Assembly: GCF_002087085.1 (NCBI RefSeq) | Contig: NZ_MWQY01000008.1 | Location: 1 to 64,000 of the forward strand | Direction of reading: 5' to 3' | Length of the DNA stretch: 64,000 bases | Part shown: positions 16,205 to 21,683 of the stretch, piece after piece | Layout: each line of letters opens with the position of its first letter | How positions within the stretch are numbered: position 1 is the stretch's first letter | The notes under the pieces: generated by a model | Told to the model about the DNA's origin: nothing | Databases searched by the model: none | Seen by the model: only the letters and a program-made list of their open reading frames with translations | Position numbers and translations under genes: made by a program

Positions 16205-18100
16205 ATGCCCGATACCCTTCCCAAACGAATACTGCATTTTGCGGAAAAGCACCCGGAGGCAGTTATCCAGTACACGAAGGACGAAACCGGTACCTTTCAG
16301 CCGACGACATTTCCGGTATTCGTCCGGGAGTTCAAGGCCTTTGCTGCGGGACTGCATAACCTGGGAGTCAAAAAAGGAGACCATGTCGGGCTGATCAGCG
16401 AAAACCGCAAGGAATGGCTGATCAGCGATATAGGTATTCTCGCCCTGGGAGCTGCCGACGTCCCCCGGGGCTGCGATTCCACCGCCGAAGAAATAAGCTA
16501 TATTCTCTCCTTCTCCGAGTGCCGGGTGATCATCATTGAAAACGAGGCCCAGCTGGCCAAGATCAACGCCCACAAAAAAGAGCTGGGTCACCTGAAGCAT
16601 ATCATCCTGATCGACGCCGGGGTAAACCCGGAAGGCTGGCTGGGGGTCAAACTCCACAGTTTTGCCGAGGTACTGGAAAACGGAAAGGAACTGTACGACA
16701 AACGCCCCGAACAGGTGGATACGAGCATCCAGGAGGGCGACAGGGACGACATTGCCACTCTCATCTTTACCTCCGGCACCACCGGAGTTCCCAAGGGAGT
16801 AATGCTCACCCACGGAAATTTTCTCCATCAGGTGGAAAACGTACCGAAGCTGATCAACACCGGTCTCGGGGACATCTGGCTTTGTGTACTGCCGGTATGG
16901 CACTCCTTTGAACGGATCATGCAGTACGTGGCCACCGGCTGGGGGTCAGCCCTGGCCTATTCCAAACCCGTCGGCAAGATCATGCTCGCCGATATGCAGC
17001 AGATAAAACCGACGTGGATGGCTTCGGTCCCCCGTATATGGGAGGCCGTACAGGCTGGAATATATCGGAACATCAACAAGGAGGGAGGAGCCAAGAAACT
17101 TCTCTTCTACTTCTTCGTCGCCGCCGCCGGAGCCTGGACAGGATTCAGGAACCGGCTGTACGGACTGCTGCCGGAATTCAAAAAGCGGATCCGGGTGCTG
17201 GATATCCTGATCGCTGTTCTCCCCTTCCTTCTGCTCTACCCTATCAAAGCCCTTGGAGATCTCCTGGTCTTCTCGAAAATCAAGGCCAAGCTGGGGGGAA
17301 ATTTCGTGGCCGGCATTTCCGGCGGCGGAGCCCTGCCTAAATCGGTGGACCGCTTCTTTTCTGCTGCAGGGATTCTGCTTCTTGAAGGCTACGGCCTGAC
17401 AGAGACCGCCCCTGTATTGGGAGTCAGGGACCAGAAGCATCCCGTTCCCGGAACAATCGGTCCGGTTTTTCCCGGTACAGTGATCGAAATCCGCGATGAG
17501 GAAGGAAATATACTGCCCCCGGGGCACAAGGGAATCGTATTTGCCCGGGGCCCCCAGGTAATGAAGGGCTATTTCAAACAGCCGGAACTGACCAGGGCGA
17601 TACTTTCTCCCGACGGCTGGCTCAATACCGGTGACCTCGGTATGCTGACCTGGCACAACGAACTCGCGATAATGGGCCGTGTCAAGGATACCATCGTCCT
17701 TCGGGGAGGAGAAAACGTGGAACCCCTGCCCATCGAGCAGAAGATGCAGGAATCTCCCTATATTTCCCAATCCATGCTGCTGGGGCAGGACCAGAAATAC
17801 CTGGCAGCCCTGATTGTGCCGGATTTTGAGGCCCTCCAGGACTATGCCTCCCAGAACAACCTGAGTTTTATGGACAGGGAGGATCTGCTGGGCAGCCCGG
17901 AAATAGAGGAGCTCATTAACGGGGAAATTCAGGAACGAATCAACGGAAAAAGCGGTTTCAAGTCCTTTGAGAGGGTCAACCGCTTCCGTCTTCTGACCAA
18001 GCCCTTCGAGGTTGGTGATGAGCTCTCCCAGAAGCAGGAAATCAAACGCCATGTCATCAACGAAAAGTACGAAAAGCTCATTCAGGAAATTTTTTCCTGA
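16205..18100 (+). CDS. Long-chain fatty acid--CoA ligase
   Basis: FTSGTTGVPKG, EGYGLTET, TGDLG, GRVKD..GENVEP. Confidence 0.9.
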   Translation: MPDTLPKRILHFAEKHPEAVIQYTKDETGTFQPTTFPVFVREFKAFAAGLHNLGVKKGDHVGLISENRKEWLISDIGILALGAADVPRGCDSTAEEISYILSFSECRVIIIENEAQLAKINAHKKELGHLKHIILIDAGVNPEGWLGVKLHSFAEVLENGKELYDKRPEQVDTSIQEGDRDDIATLIFTSGTTGVPKGVMLTHGNFLHQVENVPKLINTGLGDIWLCVLPVWHSFERIMQYVATGWGSALAYSKPVGKIMLADMQQIKPTWMASVPRIWEAVQAGIYRNINKEGGAKKLLFYFFVAAAGAWTGFRNRLYGLLPEFKKRIRVLDILIAVLPFLLLYPIKALGDLLVFSKIKAKLGGNFVAGISGGGALPKSVDRFFSAAGILLLEGYGLTETAPVLGVRDQKHPVPGTIGPVFPGTVIEIRDEEGNILPPGHKGIVFARGPQVMKGYFKQPELTRAILSPDGWLNTGDLGMLTWHNELAIMGRVKDTIVLRGGENVEPLPIEQKMQESPYISQSMLLGQDQKYLAALIVPDFEALQDYASQNNLSFMDREDLLGSPEIEELINGEIQERINGKSGFKSFERVNRFRLLTKPFEVGDELSQKQEIKRHVINEKYEKLIQEIFS

Positions 18101-18128
18101 TCTCCTGAACACGGTCATCGTTCCGGTT

Positions 18129-18164
18129 AAGAACCCCGAGGAGCACTTCTTCGGGGTTCTTTTT
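18129..18164 (+). terminator. Rho-independent terminator
   Basis: AAGAACCCCGA...TCGGGGTTCTT hairpin plus T tract. Confidence 0.8.
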
Positions 18165-18234
18165 AGTTTGTAGTGCCTTGGTTCACAATAAAAAGAATCT
18201 CTTTGCTCATATATGACCAAAAAGATCAAAATGA

Positions 18235-18263
18235 TTGACCAATGCAACATTATAGGGTATGCT
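18235..18263 (+). promoter_or_regulatory. sigma70-type promoter of the ndh2 operon
   Basis: TTGACC-17 bp-TATGCT. Confidence 0.6.
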
Positions 18264-18361
18264 TTTTAATTGAAAAGATATAGTATTACGAATATACGAT
18301 TCTCATTGTATTTCTGGTCCCTGGTAATTACAATGAAGATGTCAAGAAGGAGTTACACTGC

Positions 18362-20527
18362 ATGAAGCGTATTGTTATTCTTGGCGGCGGGTATGGCGGT
18401 ATCGCCGCGGCTAAGAAGCTGGCAAAGATTTTCAAGAAAAACAACGATATCGAGATTACCATAGTCGACAAGAATACCTATCACACCCTTATGACTGAGC
18501 TCCACGAGGTAGCAGGATCAAGGGTGGATCCGGATTCGGTCATGGTCTCCTATGAGAGAATTTTCGCGAACACGAAAGTCAAGGTGATTACTGATTTTAT
18601 CACCGGTATCGATTTCGAGAAAAAAGCCCTCGTCTCCGAGAAAGCGGCATACCCCTACGACTACCTGATTCTCGGAACAGGCGGAGCCCCGGAATTCTTC
18701 GATATCCAGGGGATTCAGGAGAATTCTTTCTCCCTGTGGTCTCTGGAAGATGCCATCCGCATTCGGCAGCACATAGAAGAGCGCTTCAGGCTGGCGGCCA
18801 AGGAACCGGATCCTGAACAGAAAAAGCAGATGCTTACCTTTGTCGTTGCCGGGGCCGGCTTCACCGGCATCGAGCTCGCCGGTGAGCTTATGGAACGCAG
18901 GGACGTACTCTGTGCCCGCTACCACATCGACCCCAGGGATGTACGGATCATCGTGGTCGAGGCCATGGATCGGGTCCTTCCGATCATTGAAGAGCCCCTG
19001 CGAAAGAAAGCCGAAAAATACATGCGGAAGCATGGAATTGAAATCATGCTCAAGTCTCCCATTGTCGCGGCGGAAGAAAACCTGGTTATCCTGCAGAGCG
19101 GGGAATCCATAAAAACGGAGACCTTTGTCTGGACCTGCGGTATCCACGGTTCCGAGTTTACCAGCCGCATCCCCCTGGAAAAGGGACATACCGCCAGAGG
19201 AGAATGCTCAATCGCCTCCGAAGAAGGCATCCATGGAATGTCAGGCTGCCGCTTCGAAGAGGATGAAACCTATATCGTCGGCAAACGGGGACGTATTCTG
19301 GTCAATAATCTGATGCAGACCGCCGATTACCACGACATTTACGCCGTGGGAGATAACCTCTGGTTTGTTGAGGAAGGAAAGGTCCTTCCGCAGATCGTTG
19401 AGACCGCTCTTCAGACCGGAGAGTGCGCCGCCGAAAACATTGCAGCGGACATACAGAGCAAAGACAAGAAGGGCTTTAAATCAAACTACCACGGTTTCAT
19501 GGTATCCATCGGCGGACGCTACTGCGTCTCCAACGCGGGGGGTATCAAGCTTTCCGGTTTCTTTGCCATGGCCATGAAGCACATGGTCAACCTTCACTAT
19601 CTCTTTGGACTGGCCGGTATAAATGCCTGCTGGGCATATCTCAAACATGAGTTCTTCCATATGGAGGACAAGCGGACCCTGATAGGCGGACATCTTTCCT
19701 ACCGCATGCAGGGATTCTGGGCCGTTCCCCTGAGAATGTGGCTCGGACTTATGTGGCTCGTAGAGGGTGTGAACAAGATTGGAGAAGGCTGGCTCAATTT
19801 TTCCGCCGGCACAAAATCCGGCTGGATGTTCAGTAAGGGAGTAACCCAGGCGGGTGTCAAAGCAGCTGCGGATGCGGCCACTGCAGCCACCGGGGCCGCA
19901 GGGGATTATGCTGCGGACGCCGCGACTGCTGCTACCGGTGCCGCCGATGCGGCGGCCGAAACCGTCACAGCCGCCACCGGTGCTGCTGCAGACTATGCAT
20001 CCGACGCGGTAAGCGCCGCCACCGGAGCAGTTGCGGATACCGCCGCGGAGGCAGTAAGCGCTGCTACCGGAGCCGTCAGTGCAGCCGCCGACAGCGCCCA
20101 CGAGGCTTTCGGCCTGGTATGGGATACGGCCAAAACCATTATCCCCTACGATTCCGGATTCGTGACCTGGTTCAGGGAGATCTTCATGGACAGCATGGCC
20201 GCCTATATTCCGTACCAGCTCTTCCAGGTAATGGTTGTCGGGGTGGAGGTTCTCATCGGCCTTGCCCTCATCGGCGGGCTCTTTACCTTCCCCGCTGCCG
20301 GGGTCTCGATCATCATGTGCTTTGTGTTCATCTTCTCCGGAATGTTCAGCTGGAGTCAGCTCTGGTTCATCTTCGCAGCCATTGTTATGCTGGGCGGTGC
20401 CGGTCGAAGCTTCGGTCTGGATCACTATGTACTTCCCTTCCTGGGCAGGAAATGGCGCTCCATGTCGCTGGTACAGCGTTACCATCTGTACGGCGGCGAA
20501 CCGGTTAACACGAAGAAAAAGCGTTAA
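18362..20527 (+). CDS. Type II NADH dehydrogenase fused to a DoxX/DoxD-like membrane domain with an Ala-rich repeat loop (Listeria EET Ndh2-like architecture)
   Basis: GGGYGG and GAGFTGIELAGEL nucleotide-binding motifs, YAVGD, PQIVETA. C-terminal PLRMWLG..W and EVLIGLALIGGLFT..GAGRSFGLD (DoxX-like). Confidence 0.85.
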   Translation: MKRIVILGGGYGGIAAAKKLAKIFKKNNDIEITIVDKNTYHTLMTELHEVAGSRVDPDSVMVSYERIFANTKVKVITDFITGIDFEKKALVSEKAAYPYDYLILGTGGAPEFFDIQGIQENSFSLWSLEDAIRIRQHIEERFRLAAKEPDPEQKKQMLTFVVAGAGFTGIELAGELMERRDVLCARYHIDPRDVRIIVVEAMDRVLPIIEEPLRKKAEKYMRKHGIEIMLKSPIVAAEENLVILQSGESIKTETFVWTCGIHGSEFTSRIPLEKGHTARGECSIASEEGIHGMSGCRFEEDETYIVGKRGRILVNNLMQTADYHDIYAVGDNLWFVEEGKVLPQIVETALQTGECAAENIAADIQSKDKKGFKSNYHGFMVSIGGRYCVSNAGGIKLSGFFAMAMKHMVNLHYLFGLAGINACWAYLKHEFFHMEDKRTLIGGHLSYRMQGFWAVPLRMWLGLMWLVEGVNKIGEGWLNFSAGTKSGWMFSKGVTQAGVKAAADAATAATGAAGDYAADAATAATGAADAAAETVTAATGAAADYASDAVSAATGAVADTAAEAVSAATGAVSAAADSAHEAFGLVWDTAKTIIPYDSGFVTWFREIFMDSMAAYIPYQLFQVMVVGVEVLIGLALIGGLFTFPAAGVSIIMCFVFIFSGMFSWSQLWFIFAAIVMLGGAGRSFGLDHYVLPFLGRKWRSMSLVQRYHLYGGEPVNTKKKR
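19871..20071 (+). repeat. Five in-frame ~15-aa tandem repeats with core (D/E)xx(S/T)AATG
   Basis: DAATAATG (19871), DAATAATG (19916), ETVTAATG (19958), DAVSAATG (20003), EAVSAATG (20048). Confidence 0.9.
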
Positions 20528-20549
20528 TACAACCGTGCGATCCGATTAC

Positions 20550-21581
20550 ATGCCGCATCCTGGAGCCGAACACCGGCTTCAGGATGCGTCTTTTTCTACA
20601 GCCAGTTCAGCATTTCTCGGCGATATCCTGGGAACCCCCCGGATGGCGGGTGAGCTTGACAATGTACGCAGCATAATCCTCGACTCCGCTGCCGAAAGTG
20701 CGGCCCTCATCCGGGAAAGCCTCGGGGAGATGATCAACGCCGGGGGAAAACTGCTGCGACCTGCCCTGGTACTTCTGGCAGGCTGGTACGGGGGAAAAAA
20801 CCAGGAGACCCTTGGGGCCTTGGCCGCCTCGGTGGAGATGCTCCATATGGCCACCCTGGTGCATGACGATGTTCTCGATGATGCGCCTACCAGGCGGGGC
20901 AAACCGGCGCTGCACGTGACTGTGGGGGCCAAAGCTGCAATACTGATCGGAGACTATCTGTTTGCCCGCTGTTTCACCCTGCTCGATTCCCTCAAGAACA
21001 GGGAGATCGGCCTTCATGCCGCCCGGGCGGTGGAACGTATCTGCGACGGAGAGATCCGCCAGGACACGGAACGCTACTCCCTGGACGTAAGCATGCGCTC
21101 ATATCTTCGGCGGATTTTCGCCAAGACCGCCGTACTTATTACCGCCTCCATGGAGCTGGGCGCGGAACACGGCGAGGCATCGCCGGAGGATGTTCAGCGC
21201 TTCAGGCGGATCGGGTACAACCTGGGAATGGGTTTCCAGGTCGTTGATGATCTGCTCGATTTTACCGGCACAGAAAACCGGACGGGAAAACCGCTGGGCC
21301 GGGACCTGAGTGCCGGAATTTTTACTGCCCCGGTAATCTATACCCTCGCCGGTCCCCGGGGCCGGGACCTGCGGGAGCTGCTTGCATCTCCTCCCTATAA
21401 ACGCAGGGACAGGGATGCTGCGGTCTCTCTTATCCTGAAGGGCGACGGAATTGAACAGAGCCGCCGTCTGGCGAAGAGCTATACCCGACGGGCATTGAAA
21501 GAAATCGAAAGCCTTGAAAAAGGCGAAACCAGGAATCTTCTCGCCGCCCTTGCGGACAGCCTGCTTGTCAGGGAGATCTGA
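20550..21581 (+). CDS. Polyprenyl (heptaprenyl-type) diphosphate synthase
   Basis: GGKLLRP, LVHDDVLD..RRG (FARM), GDYL, KTA, FQVVDDLLD (SARM). Start taken at MPHP, after the ndh2 stop. Confidence 0.9.
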   Translation: MPHPGAEHRLQDASFSTASSAFLGDILGTPRMAGELDNVRSIILDSAAESAALIRESLGEMINAGGKLLRPALVLLAGWYGGKNQETLGALAASVEMLHMATLVHDDVLDDAPTRRGKPALHVTVGAKAAILIGDYLFARCFTLLDSLKNREIGLHAARAVERICDGEIRQDTERYSLDVSMRSYLRRIFAKTAVLITASMELGAEHGEASPEDVQRFRRIGYNLGMGFQVVDDLLDFTGTENRTGKPLGRDLSAGIFTAPVIYTLAGPRGRDLRELLASPPYKRRDRDAAVSLILKGDGIEQSRRLAKSYTRRALKEIESLEKGETRNLLAALADSLLVREI

Positions 21582-21647
21582 GAACCCCCTACATTCCTCA
21601 ACAGTATACACCGGTATTCTTTCTTGCTGACAGATTTTATCCTGGAG

Positions 21648-21683
21648 AACCCCATCCCTCGCTATGTCGGATAGGGTTTTTTT
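21648..21683 (+). terminator. Probable Rho-independent terminator
   Basis: AACCCCATCC...GGATAGGGTT imperfect hairpin plus T tract. Confidence 0.6.

Follow-up and report, generated by a model that had tools for sequence, protein, structure and literature searches.

The 64,000-nt window analysed here (GCF_002087085.1, contig NZ_MWQY01000008.1, positions 1-64,000 of the forward strand) comes from a spirochaete, a diderm, and carries a forward-strand gene, ndh2 (18362..20527), for a 721-residue protein in which a type II NADH dehydrogenase (NDH-2) domain is joined to a DoxX-like four-helix membrane domain. A gene for a long-chain polyprenyl diphosphate synthase (DmkB/HepT-like, 20643..21581) follows on the same strand. 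The protein resembles the Ndh2 type of extracellular electron transfer (EET) systems, being clade D-like, and the loop between its first two transmembrane helices holds five copies of a short motif similar to the sites at which ApbE attaches flavin mononucleotide (FMN). An initial annotation had described the domain fusion and had proposed that the loop is a flavin carrier built into the dehydrogenase; the fusion is borne out by Pfam and by an AlphaFold2 (AF2) model.

The N-terminal ~430 residues belong by family match to the NDH-2 enzymes, with predicted NADH:quinone activity. Pfam finds Pyr_redox_2 (PF07992) at residues 3-265 (E 2.8e-37) and Pyr_redox (PF00070, E 2.1e-11), and the closest solved NDH-2 relatives are 4nwz (E 1.7e-67), 9pxk (E 1.5e-57) and 5na1 (E 1.8e-54). 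In the AF2 model, built on 60 homologues (predicted local distance difference test (pLDDT) 83, predicted template modelling score 0.75), this cytoplasmic FAD- and NADH-binding domain (residues 1-432, 18362..19657) is mostly above pLDDT 85, except for an insert at residues 282-306 (19205-19279). The insert, which carries C282 and C296 and is modelled with low confidence, is present in the family consensus and missing from the matches to solved NDH-2 enzymes. A long amphipathic helix (400-432) closes the domain and is followed by integral helices at residues 451-474 (19712..19783), 618-638, 642-658 and 664-676 (the last three at 20213..20389), mostly with pLDDT 85-94. Integral helices C-terminal to the NDH-2 domain are a feature of the EET-type, 'clade D' NDH-2 enzymes (PMC13524794). 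Across the 60 sequences, R458, G462 and W465 of helix 1 are invariant, and Q622, E629, G633, G639, T642 and S659 are conserved in helices 2-4.

Like members of the DoxX/DoxD family (PF07681/PF04173), the C-terminal part is predicted to be a four-helix membrane bundle; its own Pfam score is marginal, and a quinone site in the domain is conjectural. The DoxX match falls on helices 2-4 (residues 612-659, E 3.5e-5); it scores 24.8 bits where the cut-off is 23.6, and spans only positions 35-82 of the 85 in the profile. Among the 60 family members 37 match DoxX at E <= 0.01, while DoxD and MauE are each matched by three. The top structural match of the C-terminal model is 9h9e_C (NACHO/TMEM35A; Z 10.2, root-mean-square deviation 3.8 over 117 residues; next match Z 7.6), itself a DoxX family member; a Z under ~13 may for helical bundles reflect common arrangement alone, and this one lies below the diagnostic level. 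The C-terminal profile recovers only 597 of the 1.84 billion cluster representatives (E <= 0.001), and the family is therefore small.

The NDH-2 domain must be cytoplasmic and four helices follow it, which places the loop between helices 1 and 2 (residues 475-617, 19784..20212) outside and the C-terminus inside. The charge bias agrees with this: residues 473-612 hold 5 Lys+Arg and 16 Asp+Glu, and the basic 35-residue tail (687-721, 20420..20524), predicted to be cytoplasmic, holds 8 Lys+Arg. The acidic, Ala-rich loop with its disordered middle thus most likely faces the periplasm, as the initial annotation needed it to. This is the side of the membrane on which ApbE is predicted to act, and the ApbE of this genome has a lipoprotein signal; topology, net charge and the lipoprotein ApbE are all compatible with flavinylation in the periplasm.

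Five repeats of about 15 residues are found in the loop, exactly as first described. The motifs are DAATAAT at D504-T510 (19871..19891) and again at D519-T525 (19916..19936), ETVTAAT at E533-T539 (19958..19978), DAVSAAT at D548-T554 (20003..20023) and EAVSAAT at E563-T569 (20048..20068), and a Gly comes next in every copy. All five fit the ApbE pattern D-x-x-[S/T]-G-A-[S/T] except that Gly at position -2, counted from the terminal Ser/Thr, is replaced by Ala; two have Glu for Asp. Shuffles of the loop (123 residues, composition kept) contain on average 0.076 full motifs against the five observed, and none of 100,000 reached five. Of the 31,018 stop-to-stop frames of at least 60 residues in the genome, no other matches D..[ST]AA[ST] twice or more. 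Tandem Repeats Finder found no DNA tandem repeat in 19700-20300, so that the repeat is visible only as protein, and synonymous codon differences separate the five copies although the peptide is preserved. Recent slippage can therefore not have produced the array. Copies in tandem do not arise independently of one another, however, and the stronger argument for the motif is comparative.

The pattern D-x-x-[S/T]-G-A-[S/T], seven residues long, is sufficient for modification by ApbE; it works as a terminal tag and, with lower efficiency, within a loop (PMC12052999). According to the same review, changing the terminal Thr to Ala abolishes flavinylation, changing Asp to Ala has minor effects, and changing Gly to Ala leaves ~50% flavinylation in the fumarate reductase of K. 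pneumoniae. An unstructured C-terminal extension of ApbE-associated FMN_red proteins is also flavinylated (PMC11334425), and some ApbE substrates are still unidentified (PMC8238504). We consider it reasonably probable that ApbE puts FMN on the terminal Thr of the loop sites and that the flavins relay quinol electrons to periplasmic reductases; the NDH-2 domain would reduce the quinone, and the DoxX-like domain would handle it.

Conservation of the motif was assessed in the 120 best homologues, a strict site being defined as [DE]xx[ST][AG]A[ST] in the C-terminal part. Such sites occur in 81 of the 120, in 0-6 copies, and a looser form in 106. The 104 homologue loops that could be parsed contain 176 motifs, against 2.6 expected from composition-preserving shuffles. 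At 248 loop cores ([ST][AGS]A[ST]), position -6 is Asp in 74% and Glu in 7%, position -5 is Ala in 78%, and position -2 is Ala in 83%, Ser in 11% and Gly in 5%; the residues at -1 (Ala), -3 and 0 (both Ser/Thr) are fixed by the selection of the cores, and their frequencies carry no weight. The expectation in the initial annotation that Asp/Glu and the final Thr are conserved while repeat number varies thus holds for the acidic residue and for the copy number, and the frequency of the terminal Ser/Thr is uninformative. Spacers between motifs range from ~7 to ~26 residues and vary in sequence among lineages, and four to six copies recur in several lineages with different spacers. Taken over the window protein and its relatives, the sequence pattern is one of selection on a short peptide.

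The leading rival account treats the loop as a periplasmic spacer, acidic and rich in Ala, that carries no modification, its repeats arising from duplication of a unit and from helix-forming composition, and its likeness to ApbE sites being coincidental. The loop is 37% Ala and the model is of low confidence there (pLDDT <50 for residues 513-558); most copies have Ala at -2, where proven sites characteristically have Gly; 39 of the 120 homologues lack the strict form, and 10 proteins, of 600 residues or fewer, have neither loop nor site; and copy number is very variable. Coincidence does not readily explain the excess of motifs over the shuffled expectation, the Asp kept at -6, a Ser/Thr-x-Ala-Ser/Thr core that recurs despite differing spacers, or copies that have diverged synonymously. 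It also leaves aside the canonical SGAT/SGAS sites that Clostridial and some spirochaete relatives have in this position, and the ApbE genes adjacent to ndh2 in 32 of 80 related loci (both described below). We regard the unmodified spacer as unlikely.

The canonical Gly form of the site is found in the same loop in five of the 120 homologues (P0011, P0047, P0091, P0118 and P0119). Among the loci, the canonical Gly occurs in four of the five sites of L052 and in a single site each of L010, L016 and L038. Clostridial proteins have one site just past helix 1, which reads TGAS in L065, SGAS in L067 and L068, and SGAT in L085; the remaining Clostridial sites are DATSSAS, DATASAS, DGTASAS, DAVTNAT and EGVTSAS. 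In a further set of Bacillota-type relatives, a site lies within 112 residues past helix 1 in 43 of 48 parsed proteins, with Asp or Glu at -6 in 36 of the 43. The site looks like an old feature of the membrane domain that was multiplied by the spirochaetes, as far as the sequences indicate.

That Clostridial and many spirochaete relatives have a single site also bears on a variant in which the loop is flavinylated but one working flavin, folded onto the DoxX-like domain, serves as a cofactor of the quinol site, the extra copies only offsetting the poor Ala site, with no wire. The reported loss on changing Gly to Ala (PMC12052999) would fit such a role for extra copies, as would the segment at residues 590-612 between the repeats and helix 2, which is structured and conserved (pLDDT ~90). 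The recurrence of four to six copies with different spacers in several lineages suggests more than redundancy, and the variant appears improbable. The multi-FMN wire of the initial annotation is nevertheless speculation.

Several properties of the sites themselves weigh against flavinylation. The stretch that holds them is modelled with low confidence and is probably disordered, and it lacks the flavin-shielding FMN_bind fold of known carriers: PF04205 has no match in the protein at E <= 0.01, and the repeat region is below pLDDT 50. Ala occupies -2 in 83% of sites, as against Gly in proven ApbE substrates, and the one mutational datum for this exchange (PMC12052999) gives reduced flavinylation. 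The homologues without the strict motif, and the short ones without a loop, also count on this side.

The 80 related loci whose neighbourhoods were compared comprise 68 of Spirochaetota and 12 of Clostridia or other Bacillota. A polyprenyl synthase homologue lies directly 3' of ndh2 in 70 of the 80, and in eight of the ten misses the contig ends within ~520 bp. ApbE is found in the covered flanks of 32 loci, namely 27 of the 68 spirochaete and 5 of the 12 Bacillota ones. In 19 of these it is divergently oriented and lies 150-330 bp 5' of ndh2, and in five it lies just past the synthase gene. All 29 neighbouring ApbEs examined start with a hydrophobic, signal-like stretch, most with a lipoprotein-type Cys. 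Under an operational definition of EET loci, which asks for ApbE or FMN_bind beside an NDH that has a transmembrane helix (PMC8238504), such adjacency is absent from the window genome and is seen at the 32 loci and in the Clostridial relatives.

The Clostridial relatives, 41-53% identical to the window protein, lie in clusters of the order ApbE-UbiA-Ndh2-NusG_II-Hpre_diP_synt_I-polyprenyl_synt (Pfam annotation of 13 loci), and an FMN_bind gene adjoins the cluster in L053 and L073. We take this gene set to be that of the flavin-based EET (FLEET) locus of Listeria, and the link to a Listeria-type locus drawn in the initial annotation is therefore real. Since these relatives sit in Listeria-type electron-export loci, the window protein is, by this comparison, the spirochaete counterpart of EET-type ('clade D') Ndh2.

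A further rival is that the Ser/Thr residues of the loop receive another periplasmic modification, such as O-glycosylation, with a role in stability or envelope contacts and not in redox. General O-glycosylation of Ala/Ser-rich low-complexity stretches is known in some other bacteria, and the loop is extracytoplasmic, of low complexity and rich in Ser, Thr and Ala. The fixed register D(-6)...A(-1)-[S/T](0) is, however, that of an ApbE site, the association with ApbE and EET genes would be left unexplained, and no glycosyltransferase was seen in the 13 annotated related neighbourhoods. This possibility seems very remote.

The gene neighbourhoods also contain points that weigh against flavinylation of the loop. 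ApbE belongs to EET clusters anyway and FMN_bind genes lie nearby in some, so that adjacency of ApbE is not specific to the loop and does not single it out as the substrate. When the flanks were searched with a home-made profile and then with Pfam, FMN_bind was found above the Pfam cut-off within 10 kb of ndh2 in seven of 68 spirochaete loci (L010, L023, L035, L036, L043, L078 and L084; sub-threshold in L020, L022 and L028), although no FMN_bind gene was detected in the covered flanks of most ApbE-adjacent spirochaete loci. No ApbE lies near ndh2 in 48 of the 80 loci or in the window genome. At the level of genomes, ApbE is present in all 11 sampled genomes with a long Ndh2, but this says little because 226 of the 301 genomes sampled across the phylum have it. 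The genome of L008, which lacks the loop, still has two ApbE genes. In the opposite direction, no ApbE match was found in the genome of L077 (G302, 3.9 Mb), whose loop has one shifted site, QDVSAAT; the genome may be a true counter-example, or the gene may have fallen into a gap in the assembly.

Two related loci labelled Sediminispirochaeta continue with further genes after ndh2 and the prenyl synthase (L012:12093-19480 and L017:7351-14549). These encode amine-oxidase-like and SdhA/FrdA-like flavoproteins, a 2Fe-2S subunit, a 4Fe-4S protein and a CCG-domain protein, followed by ApbE. From its gene content, the extension looks like a quinone-linked reductase joined to the module.

Profile searches bear out the statement in the initial annotation that the window holds no apbE, pplA or eetAB. 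Other parts of the system were sought in the rest of the genome, which is 97% complete. One ApbE was found, as the flavin reading needs (contig C56, E 1.8e-97); it has a lipobox and lies between topoisomerase I and histidine kinases, outside any cluster. The search for FMN_bind proteins and a MenA/DmkA-type gene that had been suggested gave four proteins and a single gene, respectively. PF04205 matches RnfG in the Rnf operon, an NqrC-like protein in an NQR-like operon, and two fumarate/urocanate-reductase-like lipoproteins with FMN_bind and FAD_binding_2 domains, one on contig C34 and one on C13. The UbiA gene is on C34 (85400-89300, L092), between UbiD and UbiX homologues. Two eetA/eetB-like pairs (NusG_II PF07009/PF07456) are present, one of them directly 3' of the C34 reductase gene. 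The synthase, UbiA and the two PF07456/PF07009 pairs thus represent the expected companions DmkB, DmkA and EetB, which serve the quinone side chain and flavin export.

The C34 reductase (~217000-218800, reverse strand, L003/L093) carries the usual site, DTVAGAT, within its FMN_bind domain. A second site, DVVTAAT at residue 130, lies in the linker to the FAD domain and is the same Ala variant as in the Ndh2 loop.

The compact, self-contained module of the initial annotation does not survive this search: ApbE, the eetA/eetB-like pairs, UbiA and the two reductases are on other contigs, and of this scattered system only two parts fall within the window. Its suggestion that a built-in carrier takes the place of PplA fares better in part. 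A PF04205 search of the genome found no stand-alone PplA-like FMN_bind protein, in agreement with it, but some spirochaete relatives keep a separate FMN_bind gene in the cluster, so that the loop is not a plain substitute for PplA in every case. Weighing further against the proposed electron path, the genome search found no naphthoquinone head-group pathway (no match to PF02621; MenB 69.9 bits against a cut-off of 342.7), so that the quinone step rests on UbiA/UbiD/UbiX, the prenyl synthase and the NQR-like operon only.

Under the favoured reading, flavinylation of the loop, the parts would work together as follows. The cytoplasmic NDH-2 domain would oxidise NADH and reduce a membrane isoprenoid quinone, whose side chain would come from the co-located polyprenyl synthase. 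The DoxX-like four-helix domain would anchor the enzyme, and we infer a quinol site near the outward-facing side of the membrane. The periplasmic loop between helices 1 and 2 would present five ApbE-type sites, and the lipoprotein ApbE, using FAD exported by the EetB-like carriers as substrate, would attach FMN by phosphoester bonds to T510, T525, T539, T554 and T569. The tethered flavins would then pass quinol electrons to periplasmic acceptors, the likeliest being the two flavinylated fumarate-reductase-like lipoproteins; both the direction and the partners of this flow are putative. The acceptors are likely to be periplasmic reductases as much as extracellular ones.

Compared with the FLEET Ndh2 of Listeria and other Bacillota, the window protein shares an NDH-2 domain with an integral membrane domain and a paired long-chain polyprenyl synthase. 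It differs in coming from a diderm spirochaete, in a locus cut down to ndh2 and the prenyl synthase gene, and in a loop between transmembrane helices 1 and 2 that is expanded to ~140 residues with five motif copies. This comparison draws on later papers and not on a Listeria protein sequence: a profile search of the 1.84 billion representatives, cluster names and a word-based search with P0177 did not reach the Ndh2 of Listeria or Lactobacillales, and gave only Clostridiales, Halanaerobiales, Anaerotruncus, Bacillota and spirochaete names.

With PplA and the multi-flavinylated 'beads-on-a-string' FMN_bind carriers (PMC8238504, PMC11334425), the loop has in common an extracytoplasmic position, several [S/T]GA[S/T]-like sites, an association with ApbE and a proposed role in electron relay. 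Unlike those carriers it has no FMN_bind fold, and its sites are ~15 residues apart in a disordered stretch with Ala at -2. Closer in form are the FMN_red extension (PMC11334425) and a synthetic seven-residue 'flavin-tag' (PMC12052999), in which ApbE modifies a short motif in a tail, tag or loop; both differ in having the canonical Gly, and the FMN_red site is next to a pre-existing flavin pocket.

The FLEET Ndh2 system is already known. For a loop with flavinylation-like motifs, for its form as an array and for its presence in a diderm phylum, literature searches found no prior description. Full-text searches found no statement on flavinylation of Ndh2, nor did a look-up of terms in the text of PMC8238504, PMC11334425, PMC9882099, PMC8837199 and PMC13524794. 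The terms Ndh2, DoxX and spirochaet* do not occur in the main text of PMC8238504.

The Listeria-type pathway is a widely used model in which the exit of electrons from the membrane quinone to the outer flavoproteins is undefined. EetB has been re-assigned to FAD export and corresponds to PF07456, and deletion of eetA has no EET phenotype (PMC9973259); the two are therefore no longer candidates for the quinol step. A conserved ApbE-like site on an outward loop of Ndh2, in one copy in Clostridial relatives and in arrays in spirochaetes, is a testable candidate. As a tentative extension, possible but on present evidence not the expected outcome, the Ndh2 membrane domain with its flavinylated loop may be the missing step of electron export in both Bacillota and Spirochaetota, with quinone reduced inside, quinol re-oxidised outside onto tethered FMN, and PplA made dispensable by the spirochaete array. 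If the loop is flavinylated, Ndh2 joins the substrates of ApbE, the natural motif extends to S/T-A-A-S/T, and a flavin-based periplasmic electron supply would exist in a diderm phylum usually regarded as fermentative.

The prenyl synthase gene matches polyprenyl_synt in Pfam (E 2.6e-62), and in NCBIfam the model for heptaprenyl synthase component II fits it best (7.8e-71, under the cut-off of that model). The initial annotation placed it 22 bp past ndh2. The synthase does follow, but that gap holds only for a start at ATG 20550, and ATG 20643 is more likely, giving a 312-residue synthase close to the ~309-340 residues aligned in most relatives. Just past the ndh2 stop, and overlapping the first codons of the 20550 start, is a strong hairpin with a U-run (20554..20597, forward strand; 15-bp stem, dG -29.7 kcal/mol, z -7.4, none of 200 shuffles as stable). 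It may be a terminator or attenuator that uncouples ndh2 from the synthase gene. RNA-library contigs of two studies stop at 20543 and 20551, just before the hairpin, which is a weak hint in this direction. The terminator described past the synthase gene is represented by a hairpin at ~21645-21681 followed by U7, though a weak one (z -1.7).

Metatranscriptome contigs from three studies (four runs) cover ndh2, the repeat region included, and most are at least 99% identical to it (for example 19503-20319, 19627-20001, 19888-20179 and 19735-20017); such contigs show presence and not level, and DNA carry-over is possible. Contigs of four RNA runs start at 18290-18360 and none covers the intergenic stretch 18127-18253, which points mildly to real RNA. 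Parts of the prenyl synthase gene are uncovered, which is no evidence of absence.

Upstream of ndh2, a consensus scan gives a promoter-like site on the forward strand (18235..18263) at 9 of 12 matches, which is weak evidence. It is preceded by a terminator-like hairpin (18129-18161) that closes the upstream acyl-CoA synthetase gene. This AMP-binding, acyl-CoA synthetase-like gene lies 5' of ndh2 in the window (16205-18100) and in L012 (5655-7598) and L019 (6757-8703); this neighbour, conserved in the window and in two or more related loci, has no obvious connection with the module.

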